Below, in pieces: positions 28,801 through 58,338 of a stretch of DNA of 58,338 nucleotides (position 1 is its first letter; each line of letters starts with the position of its first letter). The translations under genes were made by a program, and so were the position numbers. The stretch lies in assembly GCA_964592515.1 (NCBI GenBank), contig CAZQFG010000001.1, positions 1 through 58,338 on the forward strand, given 5' to 3'. Below the pieces are notes generated by a model that saw only the letters and a list, made by a program, of their open reading frames with translations, searched no databases and was not told the origin of the DNA. Source of the DNA: an uncultured Chryseobacterium sp. (GTDB lineage: Bacteria > Bacteroidota > Bacteroidia > Flavobacteriales_F > PHOS-HE28).

Positions 28801-28924
28801 CGGGGTCCGCAGCTCCGGGCCGGTAGCTTCGCCCCTGAAAGGCCGGATGCGTGGCGGTAACGTCATGGTCCAGCCTTTCCCACGGAAAAGCGGGCCGAAA
28901 TTAACGGATCGCGTTCCGCGTGCC

Positions 28925-37054: not shown

Positions 37055-37173
37055 GCAGCGAAGTAAGCGTATCGCCACCGTTTTTCGTGGCGTGATGGAA
37101 CGTTCGGTCATATGCGGATGATCACCAACTTTGTACCATGCAGACGCAGCACGCCAACCGCACCCTCGGCACC

Positions 37174-38196: not shown

Positions 38197-38601
38197 ATGC
38201 GGACCGAGGCCGATAGATGGGTGGGGGCATTGCTCCACGGTTGGGTGGAAGTGCTCACGCTGTTCATGTTACTGGTGGTGGTGCTGGCCGTTGTGGGCTG
38301 GGCTTGGAACCGGGGATTCCGTCCGGCCGATCGCGGTCCGTTGGTATCCTGGTCGTTGTTGGTTTCGGCCATCGGTCTTGTGCTCCTTTTGCGGTTTTTC
38401 GATCAGGCGTTGGCGGCGTCGTTCATCATTTCCGGTGGCCTGGTCATTGGCGGGTTGCTGGGCCGTGCCATCGAACCGCGCGGGCTCATCATCCCTGTGT
38501 TGCTCATTGCCGCATTGCTCGGTCTTGGTTTGGTGATGAGCGCATTGGTGCTCTCCGCCATACTGGTGTTGGTCCTCTTGTTCAGTGCCCGGACACGATG
38601 A
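38197..38601 (+). CDS. Small polytopic membrane protein, first gene of the CotH cluster
   Basis: 134 aa, about 4 hydrophobic helices. Its stop overlaps the next start (ATGA, 38598-38601). Confidence 0.6.
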   Translation: MRTEADRWVGALLHGWVEVLTLFMLLVVVLAVVGWAWNRGFRPADRGPLVSWSLLVSAIGLVLLLRFFDQALAASFIISGGLVIGGLLGRAIEPRGLIIPVLLIAALLGLGLVMSALVLSAILVLVLLFSARTR

Positions 38602-43897: not shown

Positions 43898-43939
43898 GGG
43901 GTGCGGGAGGAGCAAAGGCCGTACCATGAGCGGCACCGG

Positions 43940-44494
43940 TCAGTTCATGCTCACGCCGGGCAACTTGCGCATCTGGCGATAGTGTTGGCTCAGGCGTTCC
44001 AGGACCAGGCGGATGGCGCCCTCGGCCTGGGCGGTGGCCTCGGACACCGCACTGCCTTGTGCGCGCAACAACATCACGCCGTACACCGCTGTGAAGCAGG
44101 TCTCCACAATGCCTTTGGCCTCTTCGCCAGCCTGTTGTTGAAGCGTGGTGATACCGGGTCGCGCGGCTTCGTAGAAGCGATCGTAATCCTCGTCGTTCAA
44201 CACGTCAACCAGCGATCGGTGCAGGAACTCCAGTTCGTTCAGCACTTCCTCCACTTCGGACAGGTGTCCACTGCGCTCTAGACCCTGTTCGCGCATGCGG
44301 GTCATGATGCCGGCGTACCAACCGCGCACTTCAGCGGCTTCCTCGGCATCCACGTTCATCGGATCGATCAGGCGTTCAGCGAGCACGTCCATGTTGAAGC
44401 CGCTGGCGCGCACCAGGTCTTCAATGTGCCACATGCTGATCACATAGGCCGCGATGTTGTCGCGCTTCTTGTCGGCCAGCAGGTCCTTGGTCAT
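43940..44494 (-). CDS. DUF4924 family protein
   Basis: KKRDNIAAYVISMWHIEDLVRA matches the remembered DUF4924 N-terminal signature (ENIAEYLLYMWQ-x-EDLIRA). Confidence 0.7.
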   Translation of the reverse strand: MTKDLLADKKRDNIAAYVISMWHIEDLVRASGFNMDVLAERLIDPMNVDAEEAAEVRGWYAGIMTRMREQGLERSGHLSEVEEVLNELEFLHRSLVDVLNDEDYDRFYEAARPGITTLQQQAGEEAKGIVETCFTAVYGVMLLRAQGSAVSEATAQAEGAIRLVLERLSQHYRQMRKLPGVSMN

Positions 44495-45156
44495 TTCTTG
44501 TTCGCGCCTTTGCGAGCCCGGTGCCGTGCGTTCAGCCCGTTCACCAGGTCGTTGGTGATGTCGAGGTTCTCATTGCCCACCCACACCTGTCCGCCGTTCT
44601 GCACGCTGAAGATGTAGTCGAAGCCTGCCACCTTGTTGTATTCCTCAAGGAAGCCCTTCAGCTCATCGCTGATCTCCTGCAACATGCTTGCTTCCAACCT
44701 GGCGAGCTGGTCTTCGCCCTGTGCCTGCAATTGTTGTACGCGCATGGCCAGTTGTTGCAGCTCGGCCTCATCGCGGCGCTTTTCCTCGTTGGTGCTGTAG
44801 GTGTGGTCCTTGGTCATCAGCTCCTCATAGCGCTGTTGGGCCCTCTCAAGCTCTTTTTTCAGATTGTCCTCCAGCCTTTTGCCCTCATTGCGGAAGCTGT
44901 TGTCCTTTTCCTTCACCAGCTCGAACTTGCGCTGCAGGGTGTCCATGCGGAAGTAGGCGATCTTGGCATCCTTCAAGGCGCTGCTGTCGCGGATCACGCT
45001 GGGTACCACCACGTCCGCTTCACCATCCTCATCAATGGATATGTCATTTGTGGTGGATGTGTTGTTGGCGGCAGGTGTGCGCATCAATTCCCATCCCAAC
45101 AGGACGGTGAGCAGCACGTTCCAGATGATCAGCAGGAGGGAGGTGTTCCGGGTCAT
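44491..45156 (-). CDS. OmpH/Skp-like periplasmic chaperone
   Basis: Track ORF trimmed to MTRNTSLLLIIWNVLL. KIAYFRMDTLQ, a long coiled-coil region, ISDELKGFLEEYNKVAGFDYIFS. ATGA-type overlap with the DUF4924 gene. Confidence 0.75.
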   Translation of the reverse strand: MTRNTSLLLIIWNVLLTVLLGWELMRTPAANNTSTTNDISIDEDGEADVVVPSVIRDSSALKDAKIAYFRMDTLQRKFELVKEKDNSFRNEGKRLEDNLKKELERAQQRYEELMTKDHTYSTNEEKRRDEAELQQLAMRVQQLQAQGEDQLARLEASMLQEISDELKGFLEEYNKVAGFDYIFSVQNGGQVWVGNENLDITNDLVNGLNARHRARKGANKK

Positions 45157-45169
45157 GGGTGTAACTGAA

Positions 45170-45205
45170 GCGCCCCTTCCACCTTCAAAAAGGGGGAAGG
45201 GGCGC
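45170..45205 (-). terminator. Stem-loop terminator downstream of the 45235-47343 gene
   Basis: Perfect 11-bp stem GCGCCCCTTCC / GGAAGGGGCGC (45170-45180 and 45195-45205). It lies in the discarded 5' extension of the OmpH ORF, which supports the shorter OmpH start. Confidence 0.6.
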
Positions 45206-45234
45206 ACAAAGGTAACCGTTGGCCGTGGCGTGCC

Positions 45235-47343
45235 TCAACGACGCACCAGCACGGTGCTGTTCCACTGTCCGGCGGCTCCGGTGAGCAGCAGGTGGTAGGT
45301 GCCCTCCGAAAGGCCGTTCAGCGCTACGTGCAGCGGGGCTCCGGTGGTCGTGGCCTTGTGCTGCAACACCACGCGGCCAGTGGCATCGAACAGGCGCAGG
45401 TCCCACGTGCCGTTGGGCAGGCCCATGATCCGGGTGCCTTCGGTGGCCGGGTTGGGTGCCAACGTCACGCGTTCCAAGGTGTTCTCCGCCAGACCCACCC
45501 AGGTCTGTAGTTGCACGCAGGTGGTGTCGTTGGTAGCTGAAGCATCGTTGGACATTTCGCTCCAGGCGCACAGCGCATCATTGGCGTCGGCGGTGGGAAT
45601 GAAGTAGGTGCTGAACGTGATCAGTGTCTGCGCACCAGGGTTCACGGGCGTGCCGCTGTAGTTCTGTGTGCTGATGGTCCCGTTGCCGAAACGGTACTTC
45701 ACGACGAAACTGCTTACCGGTTGGTTGCCTAAGTTGGTCACCCAGGCGCGCACTGCCGTTTGGGTGCCGATCTCCTGTCCGTTCTCCAGGCCGAAAAAGC
45801 CGGTGCACCCCACGTCGAACACGGGCACTTGTGAGAGGCGAAGGCCCAGGAAGAAGTCGGCTGTTTCGCGATCGCGGTAATCAGCCCATGTATTGTCCAG
45901 CACTTCATAGCTCTGCAGGCTGAAGGGCGGCGTGATGTCCTGCGCGATGTTGATGTTGGCGCCGAGCATGTACCACTGCACGTAAACGGCACCACTGGTC
46001 ACGGTGAGGGGCGTGCTTAGCGCGAATACCTGGCTGCCTGCAAAGGCCTGCGAGGGCGCAATATTGATCGAGTCGAGCAGGGTGCCGGGTCGTCCGCCCG
46101 GTCCGTCATCGTCGTATACTTTCAGCGTGTAGCCCACATTGCCGGTATTGCTGGCAATGCGCACGGTGTAGTGTGTTACGTAGGCCGGATAGTAGGGTGG
46201 GGCAATGCGCATGCCCACACCGCCATTGCCACCGTTCCAGCCCAGGCCGATGCCATCATCCGTGGCGCCGTGGAAGTTCAGGTCGTGTGTTGCCGTTGTG
46301 GTGTCCACGACCACCACTTCCTGGATGCGTTCGTTGTTGGTGGTCACCAGTTCGCCAGTGATGCCGCTGATGGTATTGCGGTAGCGGTAAATGCCAGCTG
46401 TCGTGGGGTTGAAGAACGGCGCGTAGTTGAAGGTGGTGTCCAGTTCGGGAAGGATGTTCCCAATGGCCATTTGATCGCTCACCTGCACAGCTCCGGCCGA
46501 ATTGAGCACTTGTCCCTGAACGGTGAACCCGCCGATGTCCGTATTGCCGATGTTCGAAACGTTGGCGATCATGGCAAAGGGGGCGCCATTACGCGTGCGG
46601 AAAACACCTGCGCTGCCAATAGCAGTGCTCCAGTTCACTGTGGCATCCTTCACTTCGAGCGTGCTGGCCGGTGGCATGTAAAAACGTATCGCGTAGTTGG
46701 CGGCCGGATACACATCGTTGCTGTGTTGCAGGCCGATGCTGCCCGCCACGCTCTCAATGCCGATCACCATGTCGTTGTTCTGGGTAAGTCCGGTCTGCGC
46801 AAGGTATTGGAAGGTGATGGTGCTGTCCGTCTTGCTCAGAATGATCTGGAAGCTGTTCGCACCGGTATAGCTGGGCGCTACGGGCGACCAGAAGGGAACA
46901 CCCACCCACGAGATGATCGTGCGGTCGGTCTCGTCCTGCCAATAACAGCGGCCCTGGTTGCCGTCGCCTGCGAAGTTGAGGTCGCTACCCAGTGCGGCAA
47001 GATGGTCGTTCACCCCGCCCGCCGTGGGTATGGCCGGGAAGGGCGATGCCAGATTGCCCACACCGTTGAAAGCGATGTACCCATTGCTGCCGATCCATAC
47101 CAGCTTGCGGCCATACCAGTAGAAGGGCATGTCCGTCTCCATAACGAACGGCCCTACGCGGTTGTCATCGCCCAGTCCGGTAACCAGCGTGCCGGTGGTG
47201 GTGATATCTATCCATTCGAACACCGGACCATCCGGCTCGTTGCTGTCCTTCCAAAGATAGCCGTACGCATCAGGCCCGCCCGTGGCGGCGATCAGTTGTG
47301 TTGCAAGGGCACATGCCAGGACCAGGGTAAGCTTCCGAATCAT
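45235..47343 (-). CDS. Secreted hypothetical protein with T9SS C-terminal domain
   Basis: Track ORF trimmed to MIRKLTLVLACALATQLIAA. GGPDAYGYLWKDSNEPDGPVFEWIDI is an N-terminal motif I have seen in many T9SS cargos. LAPNPATEG...GTYHLLL is a T9SS CTD. Confidence 0.8.
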   Translation of the reverse strand: MIRKLTLVLACALATQLIAATGGPDAYGYLWKDSNEPDGPVFEWIDITTTGTLVTGLGDDNRVGPFVMETDMPFYWYGRKLVWIGSNGYIAFNGVGNLASPFPAIPTAGGVNDHLAALGSDLNFAGDGNQGRCYWQDETDRTIISWVGVPFWSPVAPSYTGANSFQIILSKTDSTITFQYLAQTGLTQNNDMVIGIESVAGSIGLQHSNDVYPAANYAIRFYMPPASTLEVKDATVNWSTAIGSAGVFRTRNGAPFAMIANVSNIGNTDIGGFTVQGQVLNSAGAVQVSDQMAIGNILPELDTTFNYAPFFNPTTAGIYRYRNTISGITGELVTTNNERIQEVVVVDTTTATHDLNFHGATDDGIGLGWNGGNGGVGMRIAPPYYPAYVTHYTVRIASNTGNVGYTLKVYDDDGPGGRPGTLLDSINIAPSQAFAGSQVFALSTPLTVTSGAVYVQWYMLGANINIAQDITPPFSLQSYEVLDNTWADYRDRETADFFLGLRLSQVPVFDVGCTGFFGLENGQEIGTQTAVRAWVTNLGNQPVSSFVVKYRFGNGTISTQNYSGTPVNPGAQTLITFSTYFIPTADANDALCAWSEMSNDASATNDTTCVQLQTWVGLAENTLERVTLAPNPATEGTRIMGLPNGTWDLRLFDATGRVVLQHKATTTGAPLHVALNGLSEGTYHLLLTGAAGQWNSTVLVRR

Positions 47344-47478
47344 GGAGGGTGGGGTTTGGTGGTGAGCACCAATGTAATCAACCTTCCAGAAGAATGGCAT
47401 GCTCAGCGACCCATCGCTGTGTGTCGTGGGAAAGGACAGCTCATCCTGCCCCTATCAGCGGTGTTCGCTCATGGTCGG

Positions 47479-48177
47479 TCAGAGGTCCATTAGCATGTCG
47501 TTCCGCCGGGCGCTGATCTTGCGCATTGCGGTCTTCAGCTCATTCACGGTGAGCGGTATCTCCCGTCCCCGATGGAGCATGGCGTGGCAGTTCGGGCATA
47601 CCGGGTACAGGTCCCGCAAAGGATCGGGTTCGCGTCCCAGTTCGGCTGCCGTTGTTGAACGCTGGTGATGGATCTCGATGAAGCCGGAGCCCAGGGCGCC
47701 ATACCTCACGCTCATATCGATATTGCAGACGGAACAGCTCGAGCCGTGGCGCTGGATGCAGAGCGCACGTGCAAGTGGGTCATGCTCGATCGGGTCGATC
47801 TTCAGCGTCGAGGTCCTTTCAGTGTTCCCTACGAAATGGAGCGCATGCCGTTCAATGACCACATCCTGTTCAAGTACGTTGCAGGCCTTGCAACGTGCCA
47901 CGGATACCAGTGGGGCTGACTTGTGGTCGAAGATGGAGGCCAGCAATCCTTGCAGGTCCTCGCTGCAGATCTTGACCCAGCCGTGTTCCGTGAAACTGCT
48001 CTGTACTTCGCCGTTCCTAAGGCTCCGGATGTGCGAGCAATTGCTGCGATGGAGCATGGCATACGCCTGGTTGGCCGGCCGTTTCGTGTTGAGCACGAAG
48101 CCCCGGGGATGGTCGGTCATCCACTGCAGGTAATCCGCGTCGCTCTTATCGAAAACGTGGATCATCGGTCGTGACAT
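47479..48177 (-). CDS. HNH endonuclease (solitary, McrA-like)
   Basis: Track ORF trimmed to MSRPMIHVF. C-terminal CSVCN...IEIHHQ...CPNCHAMLH is a canonical HNH / zinc-finger nuclease core. The N-terminal ~130 aa were not recognised. Confidence 0.8.
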   Translation of the reverse strand: MSRPMIHVFDKSDADYLQWMTDHPRGFVLNTKRPANQAYAMLHRSNCSHIRSLRNGEVQSSFTEHGWVKICSEDLQGLLASIFDHKSAPLVSVARCKACNVLEQDVVIERHALHFVGNTERTSTLKIDPIEHDPLARALCIQRHGSSCSVCNIDMSVRYGALGSGFIEIHHQRSTTAAELGREPDPLRDLYPVCPNCHAMLHRGREIPLTVNELKTAMRKISARRNDMLMDL

Positions 48178-48390
48178 GGCTGATGCCGGTGGTGGGGCGA
48201 AGGGCCGCGAAAGTATTCCCACGCACAGGCCGCTAACGTGCCTCGTGGAACACATAAGGAAGTGATAGATCAGGGTTAACGGCGTCATGATCACTTCACG
48301 ATCGGTACGCTCCCGGTAGATCAGACTTAAGAGAAGGCTAACACGAAGCATGGCCGCTCCGGCCAGTTTCGCGGACCCAAATCAAGCAGC

Positions 48391-51300
48391 GTGGCCAAGC
48401 GGACGTTCCTTTTCCTGATACTTGCCCTGGTATCTGTTGTCGGTTGGTCGCAGGGGACCGTGCGCGGTGTGGTCAGCGATCCCAAAGGAGAGACGCTGAT
48501 CGGCGCTACGGTGGTGTTGAAGGCCGACCCGAGCAAGGGCGTGGTCACGGACCTGGATGGCCGCTACAGCTTGAGCATCCCTTCCAGCGCACCTGTCATT
48601 CTGGTCTATTCCTTCGTGGGTTTTGAACCCAAGGAGGTGACCGTTACGGCCAAGCCGGGTGAAGTGGTCGTTCAGAACGTTGTGCTCGGTGAGAAGAGCG
48701 TAATGATCAAGGAGTTCGAAGTGGAGGCCAAGGCGCGGAGGGGAAGCGATGGTTACCTGGACCGCATGAAGAGCAATGCGCCGGCCGCGCTGGATTTCAT
48801 TTCGCGCGATGCGATGTTGAAGACAGGTGATGCGGATGCGGCCGCTGCGGTAAAGCGGATCTCTGGCGTAAGCACGGTCGGCGCGTTCGTTACCGTTCGC
48901 GGCCTGGCCGACAGGTATCTCGTGACCACCATCAATGGCGGTCGCGTGCCTACGCTGGACCCGTACACCAACAACCTTCGGCTTGACCTCTTCCCCACAG
49001 GGCTCATGGACAACATCGTCATCACCAAGACCCTCACGCCGGATCTGCCGGGTGATTGGGCCGGTGCTTACATGAGCATGAACACCAGTGATTTTCCGGA
49101 CAGGCTGCAGGTCACCGTGTCGGCAACGGTGGGTTTCAACCCCAATAGCACTGGTCGTTCCATTGTGAGCTCGGCCTCGAGCGGTACCGACTGGCTGGGG
49201 CGTGATGACGGCCTGAGGGCCATACCGGACGGGGTGCCCGATCGGGTGGAGGATTATCCCACGTTCATCGATCCCAGCCTTTATCAGCAGCTGTCCATCT
49301 TGGGCCTGGGTTCCTATTTGAACGGATACGGGATAACCGCGAATACGCCCGGCTTTGACACACCGGGTGGGACGATGACCATTGGCAATACGCAACAGCA
49401 CCTGGCATTGACACAGCTCGGTATGCTCGCTCCCGCGTTGTTATACGACGCGAATGCGGTACAGGGTGGTGTGGCCTTGTACAACAGCACCTATGATCTG
49501 GCCTACTTCTCACCGATCCTGAACGGCGGGCTTGAGCAATTGAACACCAGCTGGGACAATAGTCGCTGGCGTGTCGCCGAAGCGACAGGTGCGCCGAACT
49601 ACAATATGAACCTGAGCATCGGAAACCAGATCGAGCTGTTCAAGAAGAAAAAGCCGAAACAGCTGGGCTACCTGCTCGGCTTCAGGTATTCCAGCGATAC
49701 GCAGAACGACGAGCACAGTACGATCCTGCGGACCATTGAACGCTACGAGGACGAGGATCCGGGAGATACCTTCAATAGGAAGGGCGAACAGCGCGTAAGT
49801 GTGGTAAGCAGCGGTTGGAACGCGCTTGGGAACGTATCCTTCAAGTTGAACCGCAACAACAACTTTTCGCTGATGGCCATGGGCAATGTGCTTGGCCAGA
49901 ACAACGCGAGGTATCTGGTGTTCCTCGACCCGACAGTAAGTGGCGAGACCTTCGTGAGCGAGGACCAGTTTTGGGAGCAGCGGCGCATGTGGGTGTATCA
50001 ATATGGCAGCAAGCACTTCATTCCAGCGCTCAACCTGACCGTTACGGCCGATGCGTCGTACAGTGATGGCGATAGGGACATCCTCGACCTGAAAGTGGTG
50101 CAGTACATCCTGCCTGCCGATGGTGGCAGCATCGACAATGTGGATGGGGCACTGCGTCCCCCCGCGCGGATCTTCCGCTACCTCAACGAGCAACTGCTGG
50201 ACACGCGGTTGGCCTTCGAGCTGCCATACAGCGATCGCGAGAACAAGGTGCGCAAGCTCAAGTTCGGCGGTGCATACCGTTGGAACCAGCGCAGGAATGA
50301 TCAGAAATATTACCAGGTTATTGGTGCGCCCGGCCCGTCACAGTGGGAGGATGCTTCTCGTTTCCGCATGCGTGAGGACGGTCGGTTCACCAGTCTGTAC
50401 ACGCCCTTCGGAAGCTTCAAGGACAACGACATCGGTATCCTGAACGTGGCCGCTGCCTTTGCCATGGTCGATCACAGCTTCACCGAGCGGATCAGGTTCG
50501 CTGGCGGTCTTCGCGCAGAGCATACCGACCTGGTCTCCGATATCTATGAGTTCTGGGAACAAGGAGTTGCGGCGGATGATCCCATACGTGGTACGGTGGG
50601 TGATCTGGCCATCGGTGGTGCTGGTGCTCCTGAGCCCAAGCCCGCCGTTCCAGGTACCATCGCGCAGTGGGACCTGCTTCCCAGTGCGAGCATGATCTTC
50701 AAGTTGCGTGAGGCAGAAGAACGTCCTGTGAACCTGCGTCTCAGCTATTTCCGCTCACTGAGCCGTCCCAGCTTCAGGGAATTCAGCGTGGTGCAGCTCT
50801 ATGATTACCTGCTGCAAGCGCCGGTTTATGGTAACCCGGAACTGCGGATGACCCGGGTGGATAACTACGACCTGCGCATCGAGCGCTTCTTTTCGGGGGG
50901 GGACAATGTGAGCCTGAGCGGCTTCTACAAAGCGTTCAAAGACCACATCGAGCTCCTCCAAACAGCACAAGGTGGATTTACTTGGCGGAACGCGGAGTTC
51001 AGCGAGGTCTATGGTCTGGAGATCGAAGGACGCTTCAGCCTGTTGCGCAACCTTGAGTTCAGGGGCAATATCACGTTGATGGACTCGCGTTCCGAGCTGG
51101 TCACTGTGCTGAACGGAGAGGAAGTGCGTTACGAAACGCCCATGTTCGGGCAGGCGCCCTACATCGTGAACACGACGCTCACCTATTCCATGGACAGCAT
51201 CGGTTTGAGCTTCAGTGCATCCTACAACGTGCAAGGACCCAAGCTCGCGGTCACCAACGCTGAACTCGACCCGACGGGTATCCGGGCCTACGAGATGCCC

Positions 51301-51489
51301 CGTCATCTGATCGATCTCACATTACGCAAACGGTTCGGAGATCACTGGAGCGCCATGTTCCGCGTAAGGGACCTGCTGAACTCTCCCCAACGCCGCACCT
51401 ACCGGTTCGAGCAAGGCTACGTGGGTGATTTCGATCGCTTCGCCTATGGTACGGAGTACCTGCTCACACTGGCCTACACCATTCGATGA
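48391..51489 (+). CDS. TonB-dependent receptor with N-terminal carboxypeptidase-regulatory-like domain
   Basis: GTG start. Signal peptide. VRGVVSDPKGETLIGATVVL...DLDGRYSL (CarboxypepD_reg-like), a plug region (ISGVSTVGAFVTVRGLADRYLVTTINGGRV), and a ~800-aa barrel. No SusD-like gene follows. Confidence 0.9.
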   Translation: MAKRTFLFLILALVSVVGWSQGTVRGVVSDPKGETLIGATVVLKADPSKGVVTDLDGRYSLSIPSSAPVILVYSFVGFEPKEVTVTAKPGEVVVQNVVLGEKSVMIKEFEVEAKARRGSDGYLDRMKSNAPAALDFISRDAMLKTGDADAAAAVKRISGVSTVGAFVTVRGLADRYLVTTINGGRVPTLDPYTNNLRLDLFPTGLMDNIVITKTLTPDLPGDWAGAYMSMNTSDFPDRLQVTVSATVGFNPNSTGRSIVSSASSGTDWLGRDDGLRAIPDGVPDRVEDYPTFIDPSLYQQLSILGLGSYLNGYGITANTPGFDTPGGTMTIGNTQQHLALTQLGMLAPALLYDANAVQGGVALYNSTYDLAYFSPILNGGLEQLNTSWDNSRWRVAEATGAPNYNMNLSIGNQIELFKKKKPKQLGYLLGFRYSSDTQNDEHSTILRTIERYEDEDPGDTFNRKGEQRVSVVSSGWNALGNVSFKLNRNNNFSLMAMGNVLGQNNARYLVFLDPTVSGETFVSEDQFWEQRRMWVYQYGSKHFIPALNLTVTADASYSDGDRDILDLKVVQYILPADGGSIDNVDGALRPPARIFRYLNEQLLDTRLAFELPYSDRENKVRKLKFGGAYRWNQRRNDQKYYQVIGAPGPSQWEDASRFRMREDGRFTSLYTPFGSFKDNDIGILNVAAAFAMVDHSFTERIRFAGGLRAEHTDLVSDIYEFWEQGVAADDPIRGTVGDLAIGGAGAPEPKPAVPGTIAQWDLLPSASMIFKLREAEERPVNLRLSYFRSLSRPSFREFSVVQLYDYLLQAPVYGNPELRMTRVDNYDLRIERFFSGGDNVSLSGFYKAFKDHIELLQTAQGGFTWRNAEFSEVYGLEIEGRFSLLRNLEFRGNITLMDSRSELVTVLNGEEVRYETPMFGQAPYIVNTTLTYSMDSIGLSFSASYNVQGPKLAVTNAELDPTGIRAYEMPRHLIDLTLRKRFGDHWSAMFRVRDLLNSPQRRTYRFEQGYVGDFDRFAYGTEYLLTLAYTIR

Positions 51490-52847
51490 TCATGCGCCAC
51501 TTATGTCCTATTTCCCTGCTGCAACGCTTGTTCAGGAGATCGCTCATTGCACTGCTCATGGCGGGCCCGCTTGGTGCCATGGCCCAGGGTGCCATCGAGA
51601 ACGTGGTGGTGGAGGTCTATTATGTGAGTGATGCGAACGATGCCACGGATGTGACCGGAGGTGGGCTGCCTGCGGGTTCCAAGACCTATCGCGTTTACCT
51701 GGACCTGTGCGATGGATGTTCCTTGCGCGCGGTGTATGGTGATGCGAACCACGAGGTCCGGATCACTAGTACAGAGCCCTTCTTCAACCACGCTGACCGG
51801 GGCAGGACCTACGGGCACCTGGTGCAGAACGGCGCGCTCGATGAAGGCACGACCGCTATTGATTCCTGGTTGGCCTTTGGTGCGGCATCCAACCAGAAGC
51901 GGGCCGTGTTGAAGGTGGACGATACGGATGGGAGCATCGTGGGCGGTGCCAACAACGATGGGGGAAGCGCCATGGTACCGGGAGGCTTGCTGGTGAACAC
52001 CGATGCTTCCGCGGGTTCTCCATTGGTGGAGCTTGATGGCCTTGTACCCCTTGCTCCGGGAGGTACCGCAGCGCCGCCCAATTTCAACGTGGCGGGTGAT
52101 GATCCCGCCACTGTGTTCGACAATGTCACGGTCTCCGGTTCGTTCACGTCGTTCAACATGCGCATGGCCTGCTCGGTACCCGGAGTGGTAGGTGCCACTA
52201 CGGATAATTTGGTACTGGTGGCCCAATTGACCACATTGGGTGAGTTGAGCTTCTGCCTGAATGTGGAGGTGCAACAGCCGAACGGATCGGTGACCAAGTA
52301 TGTATGCTCTGACGATGTGCTGCTGCCGGATGAAACGGCCAATGGACTTCTGGTCTATCCGCCTCAGTGTGGTTGCACCGACCCGGATTTCCTGGAGTAT
52401 GATCCCAACGCGGGTTGCGACGATGGAAGCTGCCAGACCGCTATCGTGTTCGGCTGTCTGGATACGTTGGCGTGCAACTACGATCCCACGGCCAATTTCA
52501 ATGTAAGTCAATTGTGCTGCTACGGACCGACGAATTGCAATGGGCTCGATGTATCGCTCGTATGCCCCACGGTCGGAATTGATGATCGTGAGCAGGGTCA
52601 CGCGCCGATCATCGCTCGCCCTAACCCCTTCAGCGATGCGGTCTTCATTGACCTGGGTAGACCAATGAGCGGTGGTTTCACGTATGCGCTCATCGATCGC
52701 ACAGGACGGACGCTACGTACTGGTGTGGCCCATATCGCTGGTCAGGATGGTTGGTCAATTGGGCTTTCCGACATTGCTTCAGGTGTTTATCTCCTGAGGG
52801 TCGATCACCAGGATGAAGTGCGTTCGGTGATGATGGTCAAGGATTGA
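51486..52847 (+). CDS. Paralogue 1 of the unnamed secreted domain family, with Cys-rich ACNYD-type linker and T9SS C-terminal domain
   Basis: ATGA overlap with the receptor stop. Shares the motifs VE-x-Y-[YH]-V, YR-[VI]-[YW]-x-D-[LM], T-x-x-F-[FYW]-N, DS-[WY], [LI]-[IVL]-[AG]-Q-x-TT-x-G-x-[LF]-[SE] with 52969, 54360 and 57024. GCTDPDFLEYDPNAGCDDGSC / ACNYDPTA linker. PNPFSD...GVYLLRV CTD. Confidence 0.8.
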   Translation: MIMRHLCPISLLQRLFRRSLIALLMAGPLGAMAQGAIENVVVEVYYVSDANDATDVTGGGLPAGSKTYRVYLDLCDGCSLRAVYGDANHEVRITSTEPFFNHADRGRTYGHLVQNGALDEGTTAIDSWLAFGAASNQKRAVLKVDDTDGSIVGGANNDGGSAMVPGGLLVNTDASAGSPLVELDGLVPLAPGGTAAPPNFNVAGDDPATVFDNVTVSGSFTSFNMRMACSVPGVVGATTDNLVLVAQLTTLGELSFCLNVEVQQPNGSVTKYVCSDDVLLPDETANGLLVYPPQCGCTDPDFLEYDPNAGCDDGSCQTAIVFGCLDTLACNYDPTANFNVSQLCCYGPTNCNGLDVSLVCPTVGIDDREQGHAPIIARPNPFSDAVFIDLGRPMSGGFTYALIDRTGRTLRTGVAHIAGQDGWSIGLSDIASGVYLLRVDHQDEVRSVMMVKD

Positions 52848-52968
52848 TCGGCCGCAAGGCACAGAGATCTTACATGCGGTAACGGTCGGTTAATACAACC
52901 ATCATGGTCCGTAAAGAAGGATCGTTCCGTCCGGGGATAGTTTCGCCGCGTTTTCCAACGATACGACC

Positions 52969-54357
52969 ATGCTTCGCCTTCTGCCTGTTGTAGCCTTAGT
53001 TGCTGGCCTGTTCCTGAACCACTTGGCCATCGGCCAGTATGCACCTCCCGACCCCACTGGTTTCCAGGGGTTGATCGTGGAGACCTATTACGTGGTGGAT
53101 GAGAATGATGCGGCCGATCTGGATGGTGGTGGTGTGCTTTCGGCAGGAAGTGTGGTATACCGGGTGTATGCCGACCTGAAGCCGGGTTACCGCGTGCTCA
53201 CGGTGGGCGGTTTTCCTGGCCATCCGCTGAACATGTCCACCAGTACGGCCTTCTTCAACAACGAGGACCGGGGCGAGGCATGGGGACGCAACATCCCTGC
53301 GCAGCATCTCAACAAGAACACGGTGGCCATCGATTCGTGGCTGGCACTCGGTTCGGCCTCCACCCAGCATTGGGGAGTGGTGAAGAGCGGTGACCCGGAC
53401 GGATCCGTTGTAGGGGGGGCGAACAACGACAATGGCCTCTTGGTGAACAGTGTTCCGGTAATGGGCCTGCCCCTCATGGAGGCCGATGGACTCTGGAGCA
53501 CGGGCGTTGCACCGCCTTCGATCACGTTCGTGGGTGAAGCACCGGACCTGTTCGACGGTGGCGGGAGCAACAACTACAGCAACGACAATTTTGCCTGGGC
53601 AATCCTGGGTGAGTATGCCGTGCCCGATACGGCGAACCGTGTGCTGCTTGGGCAGTTCACTACGGACGGTGTGTTGGAGCTTTGCTTCAATATCACTGTG
53701 AAGCTCCCTGCCGAGCTCGTTTGCAACGATCCAAGCTGCCATGAGTTCATGGAGTTCTATTGGAACTTGATGCCTTCCGATACGGCGAACGGTGGCACGG
53801 CGGCGCAGAACAAGTTCACGCATCCCACGCTCTGTTTCAATTCCTCAGCACAGGTGGTGGATTGCGAAGGCCAGTCGGGCGGGTCCGCTCTACCCGGAAC
53901 GCCTTGTGATGATGGCCTGGAAGAGACGACGAATGACGTCTACGCGAACGACTGTTCCTGTGTGGGTGAGGATTGCGAAGGCGTGCTCGGCGGTAGTGCA
54001 TTGCCGGGTCAGCCATGCGATGATGGTGATCCGCTTACCGGCAACGATACCTGGCAGACCGGCTGTTTGTGTCAGGGTGTGGTCGGCATACAGGAGAACG
54101 GGGACAATGCCTCATTGGCCCTATTCCCGAACCCGACAACTGATCATACGCGCTTGGAACTGAATGGTCTTCGCGGCGAGCACGTGACCTACACGGTGTC
54201 GGATTTGCTCGGCCAACGCGTTGCGGTGGTGGACCTCGGCATGCGTCGCGGTAATTGGTCCGGTGTGATCGACCTCGCGCACGTTGTGCCGGGTGTGTAT
54301 GTGCTTGAGGTCCGGGTCGGGGATACGCTCCGCTCTGGACGCATCATTCGCTACTGA
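52969..54357 (+). CDS. Paralogue 2 of the same family, with duplicated Cys-rich modules and T9SS C-terminal domain
   Basis: Same five motifs. Two DCEG-x-x-GGSALPG-x-PCDDG modules. LFPNPTTD...GVYVLEV CTD. Confidence 0.8.
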   Translation: MLRLLPVVALVAGLFLNHLAIGQYAPPDPTGFQGLIVETYYVVDENDAADLDGGGVLSAGSVVYRVYADLKPGYRVLTVGGFPGHPLNMSTSTAFFNNEDRGEAWGRNIPAQHLNKNTVAIDSWLALGSASTQHWGVVKSGDPDGSVVGGANNDNGLLVNSVPVMGLPLMEADGLWSTGVAPPSITFVGEAPDLFDGGGSNNYSNDNFAWAILGEYAVPDTANRVLLGQFTTDGVLELCFNITVKLPAELVCNDPSCHEFMEFYWNLMPSDTANGGTAAQNKFTHPTLCFNSSAQVVDCEGQSGGSALPGTPCDDGLEETTNDVYANDCSCVGEDCEGVLGGSALPGQPCDDGDPLTGNDTWQTGCLCQGVVGIQENGDNASLALFPNPTTDHTRLELNGLRGEHVTYTVSDLLGQRVAVVDLGMRRGNWSGVIDLAHVVPGVYVLEVRVGDTLRSGRIIRY

Positions 54358-54359
54358 GC

Positions 54360-55130
54360 ATGTTCAGCAGGTGGCTGTCGGTACTGGTCACGTTATGCGT
54401 GGCACATACCGCTGCGATCGCCCAAGGTCTGGACAGTGTTTGGGTGGAGACCTACCATGTATGGGACTCGCTTGGCGCGAACGGCAAGCCCTTGGTCACT
54501 TACAGGATCTGGGTCGATATGACCCCAGGGTACCTTATGCAAGTGGTCTATGGTGATCGTGCACATGATCTGGAGGTCTCCACCACCACGGAATTCTACA
54601 ATGCACCTGACGGTAGTGTGAAGTATGCCGATCAACTGGGAGTGAAGGAGGCGCTGACCAATCTGTTGGCCTTGGATTCATGGTTCACTGTAGGTGCTGT
54701 ATCCAATCGATACCTGGCCGTGCCGCTGCATTTGGACAAGGACGGTTCGCTCTTCACATGTCCCCCGTTCCCCAGACCGGGAAGGGGTAGTGACAAGAAA
54801 AGGTCACTATGCAAGAGGGATGGCTTGCTGGCCGCGGACTCTGTGAAGGCCGTGGTCAATTGGCGATTTGAGCCCGGCTATCTGGGTGATATCGGTGGTG
54901 GTGTGATCCATACGATGGACGGAGCATGGGCGGTGCTGGGTGGAACGCCGGGCGTTACGGAACAGAACCAGATCCTTATTGCTCAGGTCACCACATCAGG
55001 TGAACTGTCCTATAAGTTGAACATTCAGGTGGCCACTGTGGACAGGGTCGCCATCAAGTATGTGCATGATCGTCCCGTTGAGAACGAGGTCACGCAACCC
55101 AGCCTGCGCTTCGGTAAGTACCGGAAGTGA
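54360..55130 (+). CDS. Paralogue 3 of the same family: bare domain, no Cys-rich linker, no T9SS domain
   Basis: Starts 2 nt after the paralogue 2 stop. Signal peptide. VWVETYHVWD, TYRIWVDM, STTTEFYNAPDG, LDSWFTVGAVS, ILIAQVTTSGELSYKLNIQV. Confidence 0.75.
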   Translation: MFSRWLSVLVTLCVAHTAAIAQGLDSVWVETYHVWDSLGANGKPLVTYRIWVDMTPGYLMQVVYGDRAHDLEVSTTTEFYNAPDGSVKYADQLGVKEALTNLLALDSWFTVGAVSNRYLAVPLHLDKDGSLFTCPPFPRPGRGSDKKRSLCKRDGLLAADSVKAVVNWRFEPGYLGDIGGGVIHTMDGAWAVLGGTPGVTEQNQILIAQVTTSGELSYKLNIQVATVDRVAIKYVHDRPVENEVTQPSLRFGKYRK

Positions 55131-55187
55131 AACACAGGGGGTGCACCAAGTGTGTGCATGTTAGATCCAGGTTGAGGCGGTCCGAAC

Positions 55188-55221
55188 GGAACCTTACCGA
55201 ATGATTATGGCTTAAGGTTCC
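55188..55221 (+). other. Hairpin in the 236-bp intergenic gap (9-bp stem, 16-nt loop)
   Basis: GGAACCTTA ... TAAGGTTCC, read directly. No U-tract, so a terminator role is uncertain. Confidence 0.3.
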
Positions 55222-55366
55222 ATGTTAGATCGGTAAGCTGCGTTTCGATCAATCATGATGAAAGCATATACATTCTATAACCATTGATGGACAAGGGTTG
55301 TGGCAGTTTTGCCGTGCTCAAAGAAGCAACCTGCAACAGCACGACAAAACCCCAAAACCCCTATCC

Positions 55367-56944
55367 ATGAGAACTTTGACAAGAATGACTTTGGCGGCCG
55401 GTCTTACGGTCGCTGCCGGTGCTGCGAGCGCCCAAAGCGTTGGAGCGGCCTGCGGCTGCCCGAGCGTTTCGGCCCGCACCCAGGTACTGATGTCCACCCT
55501 GGTGGATCCGGTCACCAAGAACCTGGTGAACGCGAACACGACCCTGACCTGTAACAACCTCTACATACTGGACACCCGGATGTATGTGAACGATGGCCAG
55601 GACCTGTTCGTGGAACCCGGTACGGTGGTGAAGGCCAACAACAATGCCGGCCTTGCTCACGCCATCATCGTGGCCCGCGGAGGTCAGATCTGGGCGAACG
55701 GTAGTGAGAGTTGCCCGATCATCATGACCGCAGCTGCCGATCCCTTGGATGGTAGCTACAGTGTTCAGAACCGTGGTCAGTGGGGAAGCTTGATCGTGCT
55801 GGGCCGCGCTTATACGAACAAGCGCTCCACGGATGGCGATGCAACGGCCACCTCCACAAACGGTGTTGGTACGATCGAAGGCCTTGACGCCGGCGATAGC
55901 CGACACTTCTACGGTATGCCCGTTGGCCAGGAGATGAATGATGACAACAGCGGTGTGTTGCGCTATGTGAGCCTGCGCCATGGTGGCGAGGTGATCGGTG
56001 CCAACAACGAGATCAACGGCCTTACCCTCGGTGGTGTGGGTCGTGGTACCACGGTGGACCACGTGGAAGTGATCGCCAACCTCGACGATGGGTTCGAGTT
56101 CTTCGGGGGCACGGTGAACGCCAAGTACTTGGTGGCCATGCATTGCGATGATGACTACATCGATTGGGACCAGGGCTTTAGCGGCAAGATCCAGTTCTTC
56201 TATGGTGTACAAGGCCCGGATAACGGTGGTGGTGCCCTGAACCAAGGTGACAACGGCATTGAGGCCGATGGTGATGATGCGTCAACTAACGCTGCTAATG
56301 GTGGTATCGCATCGAACCCGACGGTGTACAACGCCACGTTCATCGCTCGCACGCAGACCATTGCCCAGGCCGATGAAGGCATTGAGGCGAAAGAGCGCAC
56401 CGAGGGAACCATCGTGAACTCCATCTTCACCCGTTTCCGCTCGGGCCTGAACCTGGTGGGTGCCACCGGGACCAATGCCACAGGCAAGTGGGAGAGCGGT
56501 CTGTTGAACGTGAAGAACTGCACGTTCGTTGATTGCTCCAACCCCCTTCGTATCAACGGTGCGAACACCACTTCAGGTGCGAACTGGGACCGCTTCACCT
56601 TGACCGATGGTAACGTCGCCCTTGCTTCGGGCCTGATCGACTACACCTATACCATGACCCAGCCCGGCAACGTGCTCACCGACCGTGTGAACCCCGTTCC
56701 CGCCGCCGGTGCTGCCACCAGCACGCTGAACGCACCGGTGGATGGCTTCTTCACCGGAGCTAAGTACCGTGGTGCCTTCCAGCCTGGTGCGGAGCCTTGG
56801 ACACAGGGTTGGACCCTGGCCGCCCAGATCGGTCTTGACGCCGCTGCCGCTGCTGGTTGCACGGGCGACCTGAACCGCGATGGTCAGATCAATGCTGCTG
56901 ACTTCACGCTCTTCGTGAACGCCTTCGGCGGTAACTGCTTCTAA
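55367..56944 (+). CDS. Secreted conserved protein (probable beta-helix-like fold) with C-terminal dockerin/EF-hand-like motif
   Basis: Track ORF trimmed to MRTLTRMTLAAGLTVAAGAASAQ. The core NSGVLRYVSLRHGG...NEINGLTLGGVGRGTTVDHVEVIANLDDGFEFFGGTVN...DDYIDWDQGFSG matches a family I recall next to TonB receptors in marine Flavobacteriia. The tail GDLNRDGQINAADFTLFVNAFG is dockerin-repeat-like. No T9SS CTD. Confidence 0.75.
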   Translation: MRTLTRMTLAAGLTVAAGAASAQSVGAACGCPSVSARTQVLMSTLVDPVTKNLVNANTTLTCNNLYILDTRMYVNDGQDLFVEPGTVVKANNNAGLAHAIIVARGGQIWANGSESCPIIMTAAADPLDGSYSVQNRGQWGSLIVLGRAYTNKRSTDGDATATSTNGVGTIEGLDAGDSRHFYGMPVGQEMNDDNSGVLRYVSLRHGGEVIGANNEINGLTLGGVGRGTTVDHVEVIANLDDGFEFFGGTVNAKYLVAMHCDDDYIDWDQGFSGKIQFFYGVQGPDNGGGALNQGDNGIEADGDDASTNAANGGIASNPTVYNATFIARTQTIAQADEGIEAKERTEGTIVNSIFTRFRSGLNLVGATGTNATGKWESGLLNVKNCTFVDCSNPLRINGANTTSGANWDRFTLTDGNVALASGLIDYTYTMTQPGNVLTDRVNPVPAAGAATSTLNAPVDGFFTGAKYRGAFQPGAEPWTQGWTLAAQIGLDAAAAAGCTGDLNRDGQINAADFTLFVNAFGGNCF

Positions 56945-56963
56945 GAGATCCCCTGCTGAGCGT

Positions 56964-56994
56964 GAACGGGTCCGGTACTGGTGCCGGCCCGTTC
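56964..56994 (+). terminator. Imperfect hairpin after the 55367-56944 gene
   Basis: GAACGGG(T)CCGG-TACTGGTG-CCGGCCCGTTC: 11 bp paired with one bulge, and no U-tract. Confidence 0.35.
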
Positions 56995-57023
56995 ATGCGA
57001 GGCGAACGCAACAACCCAAGAAC

Positions 57024-58338
57024 ATGAAATTCCCAAGCATAACATCACTGCTTGCAGGCTTCGCCCTGCTTGGAGGCCTCACGGCCCAGGCGCAGGGTCT
57101 GGAGGGCATCATTGTGGAAGAATACCACACGGTGACCCAACAGGACGCTGATGCGTACACCAACGACTTCGGCGGCGGTTCCTATCCGCTGGTGGCCGGA
57201 ATGAAGGTTTACCGTGTCTACGTGGACATGGCGCCGAACTATCGCTTCCTGAACGTGTTCGGAAGCGTGGACAATTCCAACCCGGTCAATTTCCAGACCA
57301 CGACGACGTTCTGGAACGACGATAACTATGGTTCGGAGGTCCCTGCTCAGACCCGTCGATTCGACGAAGGCACCTTGTTTGACTCGTACATCACCGTTGG
57401 TACCACGGGTATTGCCGGTGGCGTAGCTGGCTGCGGTGCGAACACCCAGCAGGTAGGCGTTCTTCGTACGGCTGATACGAACGGCGATCTCACAACCTGT
57501 GGCGTTTACCCTGGCTTCACGGGGAATGACGGGAACATCCCGGGTACCCTGCCCGCGTTGACCTATAACCTCGGTGGATTGATGAACTTCGATGCGCTCA
57601 CCGCCAACGGAAGCGTGTTCACCTTCATCAACGATGCATGGGCTATCCTGCCCGCTTCCACCGGTGTTGACGGTGCTGGTTCCAACCGTGTGTTGATCGC
57701 TCAGTTCACCACCAATGGTGACTTCAGCTTCCAGCTCAACGTCGCCATCAGTGACCCGAACCAGGTCATCGAGGAATACGTGCATACGACGGCTGGCGCT
57801 GGTCAGCAGGTAAGCCCTTTCCTGACCTACCCCCAGGTGCAGACCTGCGTGGCCCCGGTCATCACCAGCGCTACCAGCAACGGTCCGATCTGCGCTGGCT
57901 CTGCTCTGAACCTGAGCGCAGCTGCCACTGGTGACGCTACGATCACGTACAGCTGGAGCGGTCCGAACGGATTCAGCTCCGCCCTGCAGAACCCCAGCAT
58001 TGCTGCTGCTACCGTGGCTGCCACCGGTACCTACACGGTGACCGCTTCGAACGGTTGTGCACCTGATGCCACGTCTACCGTGAACGTTGTGGTGAACCCT
58101 TCTTCGAACAACACCACCACGCAGAGCGCCTGCGATAGTTACACCTGGAGCGTGAACGGCACTACCTACACGCAGAGCGGTACCTACACCAGTGTGAACG
58201 GTTGCGCCACAGAGACCTTGGTTCTGACGATCACCCCGAGCACGAACAACACCACCACGGAAAGCGCTTGCGACAGCTACACTTGGAGCGTGAACGGTAC
58301 CACCTATACCCAGAGCGGTACCTACACCAGTGTGAACG
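57024..58338 (+). CDS. Paralogue 4 of the family (5' partial, runs off the window), followed by Ig-like and 46-aa tandem-repeat modules
   Basis: Not in the ORF track because no stop is reached. I translated 57024-58338 by hand: 438 codons with no stop. MKFPSITSLLAGFALLGGLTAQAQ signal. IIVEEYHTV, VYRVYVDM, TTTTFWNDDNYG, FDSYITVGTTG, VLIAQFTTNGDFSFQLNV. Then CVAPVITSATSNGPICAGSALNLSA...YSWSGPNGF. Confidence 0.85.
   Translation, partial: MKFPSITSLLAGFALLGGLTAQAQGLEGIIVEEYHTVTQQDADAYTNDFGGGSYPLVAGMKVYRVYVDMAPNYRFLNVFGSVDNSNPVNFQTTTTFWNDDNYGSEVPAQTRRFDEGTLFDSYITVGTTGIAGGVAGCGANTQQVGVLRTADTNGDLTTCGVYPGFTGNDGNIPGTLPALTYNLGGLMNFDALTANGSVFTFINDAWAILPASTGVDGAGSNRVLIAQFTTNGDFSFQLNVAISDPNQVIEEYVHTTAGAGQQVSPFLTYPQVQTCVAPVITSATSNGPICAGSALNLSAAATGDATITYSWSGPNGFSSALQNPSIAAATVAATGTYTVTASNGCAPDATSTVNVVVNPSSNNTTTQSACDSYTWSVNGTTYTQSGTYTSVNGCATETLVLTITPSTNNTTTESACDSYTWSVNGTTYTQSGTYTSVN
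58107..58338 (+). repeat. In-frame 138-bp (46-aa) tandem repeat, at least 1.7 copies before the window ends
   Basis: AACAACACCACCACG... starts at 58107 and again at 58245. The unit is NNTTT-x-SACDSYTWSVNGTTYTQSGTYTSVNGCATETLVLTITPST. Confidence 0.85.

Follow-up and report, generated by a model that had tools for sequence, protein, structure and literature searches.

A TonB-dependent receptor locus with four paralogues of an undescribed secreted domain: a candidate capture and uptake system of uncultured Bacteroidota

Six co-directional genes lie at the end of a 58,338-nucleotide (nt) stretch of contig CAZQFG010000001.1 from an uncultured Chryseobacterium sp., a stretch referred to in its whole length as the window. 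The open reading frames (ORFs) of the plus strand were read and translated, and all six genes were found where a first-pass annotation of the same DNA had placed them (Table 1). The first encodes a TonB-dependent receptor (T), four encode paralogues (P1 to P4) of a secreted domain designated D, and the sixth, between P3 and P4, encodes a secreted protein (X) that is unrelated to D. The stop codon of T and the start codon of P1 overlap in an ATGA at 51486-51489, and a gap of 2 nt separates P2 from P3; both details had been described before and were read directly. It is proposed that the D proteins would be a new class of receptor-associated capture proteins displayed by the T9SS (type IX secretion system), and that the cluster would form a self-contained, SusD-free acquisition system. 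This proposal, which draws on sequence comparisons and on the conservation of the locus, is put at about an even chance.

Table 1. Genes and putative expression signals of the cluster (positions in the window)
Feature	Position	Strand	Remarks
Degenerate second copy of cis-element	~48265-48290	+	sequence reading
cis-element TAGATC-N5-TRA-N8-KAAC	48317-48342	+	over the -33 region of the T promoter
-7 promoter box of T (likely), CAGTTTCG (TAnnTTTG-like)	48364-48371	+	25 nt after TAAC, 20 nt before GTG
T, TonB-dependent receptor	48391-51489	+	1032 aa; start GTG
P1, D-domain paralogue	51486-52847	+	453 aa
-7-like box in the P1-P2 spacer, TAGTTTCG	52938-52945	+	kept in all 18 canonical loci inspected
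P2, D-domain paralogue	52969-54357	+	462 aa
P3, D-domain paralogue	54360-55130	+	256 aa
cis-element, second full copy, upstream of X	55162-55187	+	pattern match
X core promoter-like block TAAC-N26-TTTG, ending in CAGTTTTG	55278-55311	+	kept upstream of X in divergent loci
X, secreted beta-helix protein, unrelated to D	55367-56944	+	525 aa; alternative TTG start at 55298
Hairpin directly 3' of the X stop	56954-57004	+	-37.1 kcal/mol, z -4.3; 20 nt before the P4 ATG
P4, D-domain paralogue, 5' part	57024-58338 and beyond	+	cut at the window end

The relatedness of the four paralogues, claimed earlier, is borne out by BLASTP (P1 with P2, E 8e-52; P3 with P4, 4e-21; P1 with P4, 8e-20). The shared unit directly follows the signal peptide and comprises about 250 amino acids (aa) rather than the 230 aa or so first estimated, with 29 invariant columns over about 255 aligned positions of P1 to P4. 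P1 consists of a signal peptide (AMA/QG), the D domain at about residues 34-300, a Cys-rich spacer and a C-terminal sorting domain (CTD) that resembles T9SS type A. This CTD scores below cutoff (TIGR04183, 20.4 against 23; Pfam, 23.1 against 27), and P1 orthologues carry precomputed PF18962. In P2, two PCDDG modules rich in Cys come after the signal peptide and D, and then a CTD of T9SS type A, which reaches 29.6 bits with TIGR04183 (cutoff 23) and makes P2 the sole paralogue in the window above the curated T9SS-CTD cutoff. The Cys-rich spacer between D and CTD reads CGCTDPDFLEYDPNAGCDDGSC...CNYDPTANF in P1 (52350-52600) and contains two PG.PCDDG...C.C.G units in P2 (53850-54110).

P3 is a signal peptide and a D domain alone. 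No CTD was found in it with Pfam or NCBIfam, it has no lipobox, and P3-type orthologues have no conserved Cys at the cleavage site. The orthologue group is always 233-268 aa long and tail-less, with a conserved Cys-bridged basic loop. On this evidence P3 is predicted to be periplasmic, unless it is exported by an unknown route. P4 carries, after its signal peptide and D domain, an Ig_7 domain ("CHU_C associated") and tandem 46-aa modules; its orthologues are 760-1270 aa long and end in a T9SS CTD, which scores 41.1 bits in the orthologue of locus L009 and which in P4 itself would lie beyond the window. The 138-nt units that encode the modules (58105-58200 and 58243-58338) are 90% identical (SACDSYTWSVNGTTYTQSGTYTSVNGC...) and are cut by the window end. 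As read from the sequence, all five secreted proteins, P1 to P4 and X, have signal peptidase I sites of the AxA/Q type and no lipobox. The earlier suggestion that the family is delivered by T9SS rather than by lipidation is supported for most members, which have a type-A CTD, an Ig-like stalk and no lipobox, but delivery by T9SS fails for the set as a whole because P3 and X have neither CTD nor lipobox.

The D domain had been taken for an undescribed one, and database comparisons agree. With E-value limits of 0.1-1, searches of the window proteins against Pfam-A and NCBIfam gave zero matches over the domain, 42 family members gave zero matches to Pfam at relaxed E-values up to 1, and newer precomputed Pfam assignments for database matches of D list PF18962 or nothing. 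A profile of the four copies had 0 matches to sequences in the PDB at E up to 10. A profile search and a structure prediction with fold search, both proposed with the first-pass annotation, were run; the one matched zero known families and the other gave a confident model with zero significant matches. This AlphaFold2 (AF2) model, made for P3 from a 42-sequence alignment (predicted local distance difference test, pLDDT, 86.7; predicted template modelling score, pTM, 0.85), is a beta-sandwich formed by the N- and C-terminal strands and interrupted by a long loop-rich insertion at about residues 76-180. Foldseek searches of the model against PDB and BFVD returned zero matches at E up to 1e-3. 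The best matches, to integrin, YcnI and complement C3, have template modelling (TM) scores of 0.2-0.28 on the query, and the structural matches have E-values of at least 0.038; these weak matches and that to Flo1 are non-significant and were not built upon. A full-text literature search found no description of the D domain or of PF28492, the Pfam family of X.

Residues E30, Y32, R49, N81, D106, S107, D126, D154, Q209 and N221 of D are invariant, and H69 is near-invariant. The invariant positions are concentrated in the loop-rich insertion (N81, D84, D106-S107-W108, D126, G129-S130, D154-G155), and they adjoin a segment that varies between paralogues. The insertion may thus be a ligand site, possibly calcium-dependent, beside a specificity loop. 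The same invariant polar residues could form an active site if D were itself a new enzyme, such as an esterase or a glycan lyase or hydrolase of beta-sandwich fold, in which case the paralogues would be a secreted degradative battery that feeds T. Several polysaccharide lyase and hydrolase families are beta-sandwiches of roughly 250 aa, and the cluster has no gene for another surface enzyme. An enzymatic D is nevertheless highly improbable, given zero significant fold matches to solved beta-sandwich enzymes, the retention of the conserved site in P3, which has no secretion tail, and the existence of tandem D arrays, which are more typical of binding modules.

The extent of the family was estimated by a profile search of 1.84 billion cluster representatives (clusters at 50% identity), in which at least 1386 proteins passed an E-value limit of 1e-3 and 557 the stricter limit of 1e-30. 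Up to four copies of D occur in tandem in one protein. All named sources are metagenome-assembled genomes (MAGs) of Flavobacteriales or other Bacteroidota, with no cultured host found, and the proteins are named only "T9SS type A sorting domain-containing protein" or "hypothetical". A Por_Secre_tail domain ends 35 of 45 long family members. The domains that accompany D include Big_7, DUF4982, PKD, TSP3, EF-hand, MAM and similar modules, and no catalytic partner domain was found among the 45 long members. In most members D forms a head on an Ig-like stalk with a type-A T9SS sorting domain at its end, and this head-stalk-tail order is, as far as domain architecture can tell, the layout of a displayed binding head.

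An N-terminal head on a stalk of Ig-like, PKD, TSP3 or MAM domains with a T9SS CTD is also the classical layout of an adhesin. The D proteins could therefore be surface adhesins or structural proteins of the envelope, serving attachment, aggregation, gliding or biofilm formation with no role in transport, and the receptor could be merely co-regulated or co-inherited. P4, with its "CHU_C associated" Ig_7 domain and tandem 46-aa modules, would suit such a function; X-D pairs and D arrays occur without a receptor in loci L066, L045 and L042, and the adhesins PfbA and antigen 43 are among the fold matches of X. The P1 and P2 types, short at about 440-460 aa, and P3, which has no CTD, make poor candidates for adhesins, and an adhesive function leaves unexplained the stop/start overlap with T, the adjacency of T and D in 50 of 50 loci across deep divergence, and why there should be a receptor clade found together with D in each locus examined. 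Adhesion without transport is for these reasons considered fairly unlikely.

The receptor itself contains an N-terminal CarboxypepD_reg extension (CarbopepD_reg_2), a Plug domain and a barrel, all above Pfam cutoffs. The Plug (PF07715) scores 30.5 bits against a cutoff of 23.9, the TonB_dep_Rec_b-barrel (PF00593) 92.1 bits against 27, and OMP_b-brl_3 79.9 bits. T is a genuine TonB-dependent receptor. No STN domain was found in it with Pfam or NCBIfam, and the same databases confirm the earlier statement that the six genes encode no SusD, sigma or anti-sigma domain. A candidate TonB box, VMIKEFEVEAKA at about residues 103-114, was spotted by eye only. Assignment of T to the SusC/RagA group was rejected, as TIGR04056 gives 63.2 bits against a cutoff of 368.25 and aligns with residues 23-111 only, which is the N-terminal extension. 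The best NCBIfam match is to TIGR01782 (TonB-Xanth-Caul), at 148 bits over positions 524-867 and below the cutoff of 310; this subfamily contains carbohydrate-scavenging TonB-dependent transporters (TBDTs). Single-sequence and profile searches of PDB sequences with T matched only the CarboxypepD_reg extension, including that of SusC/RagA structures, and the substrate class can therefore not be read from solved relatives. A search for the clade of T gave 454 matches, all of them in MAGs and confined to the D-bearing lineages. By sequence, T belongs to a distinct receptor clade that co-occurs with D in each locus examined.

Rather than import a ligand, T might act as an outer-membrane shuttle or anchor for the T9SS cargo encoded beside it, in the manner of PorP/SprF. 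Genes for T9SS cargo can be genetically linked to genes for their cognate outer-membrane partners, as for PorP/SprF with cargo that carries type-B CTDs (PMC12618676), and the adjacency of T and D is invariant. Cargo with type-A CTDs is all handled by PorV (PMC12618676), however, and the CTDs of the D proteins are of type A (PF18962/TIGR04183). Moreover, a Plug and a TonB-dependent receptor barrel that both exceed the Pfam cutoffs are the hallmark of TonB-gated import and not of a FadL-like or PorP-like shuttle. Because the CTDs are of type A and T has a plug, a shuttle is regarded as extremely improbable.

The pairing of receptor and D genes was followed across related genomes. A scan of GTDB with one genome per species, based on one conserved peptide pattern, retrieved 63 loci, all from MAGs; their ORFs were called and then searched with the D profile, T and X. 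An orthologue of T is present in 50 of the 63 loci, and in 50 of these 50 a D gene lies directly 3' of it on the same strand, with T-D gaps of at most 33 nt in annotated loci. Among the 13 loci that lack T, most start no more than a few hundred bases from the end of a contig. Real exceptions to the pairing are L066 and possibly L045, which have X-D or D-only arrangements without a receptor within the available sequence. The proximity of D to TonB-dependent receptors that the first-pass annotation had postulated is thus found wherever T is present, but X-D pairs also occur without a nearby receptor (L066). Likewise, a D gene, usually a long one, directly follows X in 39 of the 39 X genes with room downstream. 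The canonical gene order is T-D-D-D-X-D, and a divergent type has the order D-(D)-T-D-[Fib_succ_major lipoprotein]-X-D. The T-D pair persists at 43-47% receptor identity (L071, L072) and, through L060 from Ca. Opimibacter iunctus (Saprospiria by NCBI taxonomy), spans Flavobacteriia and Saprospiria. No SusD-like gene was found in the five downstream genes or in annotated related loci. It is supported, from gene order and sequence, that the D family is tied to one receptor clade about as tightly as genomic context allows.

Over 18 canonical loci, the paralogues form position-specific clans: sequences from one position share 45-63% identity, those from different positions 29-41%. This points to an old duplication of which every copy was kept; sequence divergence of this kind indicates long-maintained, non-redundant roles for the four paralogues.

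Clustering of the other ORFs of about 70 loci yielded no conserved transporter, enzyme or regulator. What recurs is limited to a Fib_succ_major lipoprotein, found in the divergent type, together with an IS630-like insertion, an ORF with an HNH motif and fragments of long T9SS proteins. The Fib_succ_major gene (PF09603) directly follows T-D in the divergent type, where the canonical type has extra D paralogues (L034 11234-11836, L036 6901-7638, L037 2464-3222, L040, L041, L044, L047, L048 and L056-L058), and some copies have a lipobox-like Cys. It represents another uncharacterised family tied to the same receptor, possibly a glycan-binding one. The IS630-like ORF (about 320 aa; HTH_33/HTH_32) lies between P1 and P2, at the same position, in eight loci (L013 4721-5560, L019 6071-7021, L020 11202-12179, L022 8406-9365, L028, L033, L064 and L067) and is either an old, vertically inherited insertion or a sign of an insertion hotspot. 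In L071, from the closed 4.48-Mb MAG CP064979.1, a Na_Pi_cotrans gene (PF02690; 15887-16867) directly follows T-D-D, and nearby lies the gene for a large T9SS protein whose C-terminal domain is of the 5'-nucleotidase type. A phosphate link was discarded as the principal interpretation, since the Na/Pi cotransporter occurs in only 1 of about 70 loci, and is kept as a minor rival.

Protein X belongs to Pfam PF28492 (Beta_helix_4), as precomputed for X homologues at 48-94% identity and for the X genes of related loci. This is a recently created, uncharacterised family with more than 5000 matches, all "hypothetical". AF2 models X as a right-handed beta-helix (pLDDT 81.7), and the best PDB fold match of this model is the pectate lyase Pel9A (1ru4; E 3.8e-4, probability 1.0, TM 0.33/0.42). 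Further fold matches include tailspike depolymerases, PL6, GH28 and GH110 enzymes, the adhesins PfbA and antigen 43, and NosD. At the sequence level, X has zero matches to lyase or hydrolase families. The model makes X a candidate enzyme, possibly lyase-like. The earlier remark that the cluster encodes no recognisable enzyme holds for sequence matches and is doubtful at the structural level, because the fold of X resembles the beta-helix of polysaccharide lyases. Invariant acidic residues recur about 22 residues apart (D240/D241/E244, D262/D263/D266/D268, D295-D304), the pattern expected of a calcium site stacked on successive rungs, which X may therefore contain.

No T9SS CTD was detected in X with Pfam or NCBIfam, and it has no lipobox, its first Cys lying inside the folded domain. 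The C-terminus consists of a single dockerin-like calcium-loop segment bracketed by invariant Cys. The segment scores below cutoff with Dockerin_1 (17.9 bits against 22.9) and dockerin_GC (15.9 against 29), and only one segment is present where dockerins are duplicated; a profile of the X C-terminus matches PDB dockerins at E 0.0019, and an X-like fragment in L027 exceeds the Dockerin_1 cutoff (24.8 bits). In L051 (424-5264), a homologue of X with 33% identity carries a T9SS CTD in place of the dockerin-like segment and lies 12 nt upstream of a second, more distant TonB-dependent receptor. In its turn this receptor has a D gene behind it, so that there is more than one arrangement in which the beta-helix family is paired with TonB-dependent receptors.

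Expression of the cluster appears to be coordinated by conserved signals. The 26-nt cis-element before T and X has exactly two matches in the 58-kb window, as compared to 0.03 expected, and its TAGA, TAAG and TAAC blocks are phased at 11 bp. A matrix of the element has 28 matches in 1.03 Mb of related loci, of which 23 are just upstream of a receptor; several of the receptor-upstream matches are in loci outside the set from which the matrix was built. The geometry of the element is typical of activators of the OmpR/PhoB type that replace a -33 element, and it may work in this way. The -7-like box of T keeps its position and spacing across loci and, by comparison with the known Bacteroidota consensus, CAGTTTCG is likely a -7 box of the Bacteroidota type. 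Genes for OmpR-type response regulators adjoin the cluster in separate lineages (L005 2048-4220, L018 3395-5585, L034 14305-15048 on the minus strand, L077 415-1110), in L005 and L018 together with a histidine kinase gene; such regulators are compatible with the 11-bp-phased element upstream of T.

The box in the P1-P2 spacer suggests that P2-P3 has a promoter of its own, and P2 would have to be expressed independently in the eight loci with the IS630-like ORF, because that ORF separates P1 from P2 there. X, too, is preceded by a conserved -7-like box of its own. RNA structure in the P1-P2 spacer is not significant (z -0.03). The hairpin after X recurs at the same place with unrelated sequence, at z < -2, in 31 of 41 loci (L001, L008-L014, L018, L020-L023, L027-L033, L035, L039, L052 and L066-L072), where some 20-30 nt separate it from the following ATG. 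Its probable function is that of a terminator or attenuator which controls the ratio of X to P4, and read-through into P4 would therefore be attenuated. A scan for sigma-70 promoters and intrinsic terminators was disregarded, as its matches were no more numerous than in shuffled sequence and such a scan is not suited to Bacteroidota promoters. The cis-element shared by T and X suggests that they are co-regulated, which is counted in favour of a joint system.

From the gene anatomy, the paralogy, the novelty of D, the architectures, the synteny, the cis-element and the fold of X, we infer a surface location, ligand binding, hand-over to T, roles for P3 and X and a kind of substrate. The core would be two invariant gene pairs, T followed by D proteins and X followed by a long-stalk D protein. 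P1, P2 and P4, each with an AxA/Q cleavage site, would be exported by Sec, cross the outer membrane via T9SS and be held on the cell surface by the type-A CTD. Their N-terminal D heads, on Cys-rich or Ig-like stalks, would capture the ligand and hand it to T, which would import it with energy from TonB. P3, a D domain with no signal for surface export, may act on the periplasmic side, and X, as a calcium-binding, lyase-like beta-helix, might bind or cut a polymeric substrate. Expression would proceed from three conserved promoters, for T-P1, for P2-P3 and for X with P4, of which at least two share the activator-type cis-element, with the hairpin attenuating P4. Capture and import are favoured because both T and X are invariably paired with a following D gene, T and P1 overlap in translation, T and X have a cis-element in common, the domain architecture is that of binding modules, and four specialised paralogues have been maintained.

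Several points weigh against this proposal. Receptor-less X-D and D-only loci exist (L066, possibly L045). The synteny counts are not phylogenetically independent, because the loci come from related MAGs found via one peptide pattern, and they show persistence rather than independent enrichment. Genes for an inner-membrane transporter, a catabolic enzyme or a regulator are absent from the cluster. In the window, the P1 CTD is under the curated cutoffs, and neither P3 nor X has a known signal that would take it across the outer membrane. A head on a long Ig-like stalk with a T9SS tail is just as typical of an adhesin. Finally, the nature of the substrate is suggested by residue patterns and by a generic fold similarity (TM 0.33-0.42) only.

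As to that substrate, the guess is an anionic polysaccharide or exopolymer. An anionic glycan is favoured since X combines a lyase-like fold with a ladder of acidic residues, D has conserved Arg, Trp, Tyr and Asp, and T shows an affinity for TIGR01782. Metal or phosphate ligands are possible for the system. The same capture by D and import by a TBDT could serve a metal, a metallophore, haem, a vitamin or a phosphate compound, with D acting like a hemophore, HmuY or BtuG. Copper-binding YcnI is among the non-significant fold matches of D (TMt 0.43-0.47), NosD is among those of the X beta-helix, and one member of the D family has a MopE-type metal motif. The Na/Pi cotransporter gene and the T9SS protein of 5'-nucleotidase type at the T-D-D genes of CP064979.1, together with the response regulators of the OmpR/PhoB type that flank the cluster in several lineages, would fit phosphate; the 11-bp-phased TAAC repeats may resemble boxes of the PhoP/PhoB type. 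All structural matches of D have E-values of 0.038 or worse, however. The near-invariant residues of D include one His and no Cys/Met cluster and are mainly Asp, Asn, Glu, Arg, Trp and Tyr. The Na/Pi gene is confined to a single locus, and no Fur- or siderophore-type genes lie nearby. A micronutrient cargo is for these reasons thought decidedly unlikely.

A more specific version of the capture proposal is held tentatively, at well below even probability. D would in this version be a new structural class of partner for TonB-dependent transporters, anchored by T9SS rather than by lipid and working as a relay of four specialised paralogues. With similar reserve, D might be regarded as a functional analogue of SusD, of surface glycan-binding proteins or of hemophores. 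The division of labour within such a relay is equally tentative: two short surface heads might sit by the barrel, the periplasmic copy might receive the ligand, and the long-stalk head might dock X via the dockerin-like tail. If true, the relay would be a SusD-independent "utilisome"; its occurrence here is limited to MAGs of Flavobacteriales and Saprospiraceae that come from lakes and activated sludge.

Comparison with described systems places the cluster among TBDTs with surface accessory proteins, built here from a new fold family with another anchoring route. Like SusC/SusD utilisomes, it has a TBDT with a CarboxypepD_reg extension directly upstream of secreted accessory genes, several paralogous accessory proteins per locus, a candidate glycan-active protein (here X), and neither STN nor sigma/anti-sigma signalling. 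It differs in that T is not SusC/RagA and matches solved SusC only in its N-terminal extension, SusD is absent, and the accessory proteins have signal peptidase I sites with Q following the cleavage and T9SS type-A CTDs rather than being lipoproteins. In addition, D has no Pfam family or PDB fold neighbour, and there is no recognisable CAZyme family. The HmuY-HmuR and BtuG-BtuB pairs similarly consist of a dedicated binding protein encoded beside its TBDT, to which it is presumed to pass the ligand. HmuY and BtuG are lipid-anchored. D is unrelated to these proteins in Pfam and fold searches, nothing in the data points to haem or B12, and four paralogues are present here, one of them without a surface signal.

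The CUT loci of Xanthomonas and Caulobacter, represented by TIGR01782, are the best NCBIfam match for the barrel of T and also have a SusD-less TBDT beside secreted proteins, but the score of T is far under the family cutoff, and the host phylum and the secretion route are others. CUT loci carry recognisable glycoside hydrolases and inner-membrane transporters, whereas the T-D-X cluster has neither. P2, the orthologues of P1 and P4 and most other family members end in PF18962/TIGR04183 like the T9SS type-A cargo gingipains and ChiA, while P3 and X have no CTD. In the full-text literature, no T9SS cargo family was found described as obligatorily encoded behind, or paired with, a TBDT. As for X, its AF2 model matches Pel9A (PL9) best among the beta-helix lyases, hydrolases (PL6, GH28) and adhesins, and its stacked invariant acidic residues on successive rungs recall the calcium sites of pectate lyases; the modest TM scores, the lack of a sequence-family match and the unusual single dockerin-like C-terminal segment set it apart from them.

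For nutrient capture in Bacteroidota, the current explanation relies almost wholly on TBDTs that work with surface lipoproteins, among them SusD, surface glycan-binding proteins, HmuY and BtuG. If the capture proposal is true, obligate partners of a new fold displayed by T9SS would be a second way of equipping TBDTs and would connect with each other the two outer-membrane machineries that are characteristic of the phylum. The D family is large, with at least 1386 clusters at 50% identity and usually four or more copies per locus, and its annotation does not go beyond "T9SS sorting domain-containing protein". The lineages that bear it have been recovered as MAGs from lakes and wastewater plants, many of them from Lake Mendota and from Danish activated sludge. 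PF28492 gains a context and hence a testable role, and the inducing signal might be sought in metatranscriptomes with the help of the conserved promoters and the cis-element.

Other genes of the window, for which no link to the cluster was seen, lie at 26317-29070 (-), 33815-37213 (-), 38217-42366 (+), 42368-45207 (-) and 45235-47400 (-). The products of the other window genes include a further T9SS-tailed protein, of 721 aa, that belongs to no recognised family, a CotH-kinase-like protein with a Beta_helix protein encoded after it, an S41 protease that is tricorn-like, and the envelope-biogenesis proteins LptD, OstA-like and OmpH. Upstream of T and divergent from it is an ORF (47479-48351, -) with an HNH-type Cys/His motif, CSVC...HH...CPNCH, and zero Pfam matches, which 8 closely related loci keep in that place. 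Because its annotated 5' end overlaps the promoter element of T, the true start codon probably lies further in.

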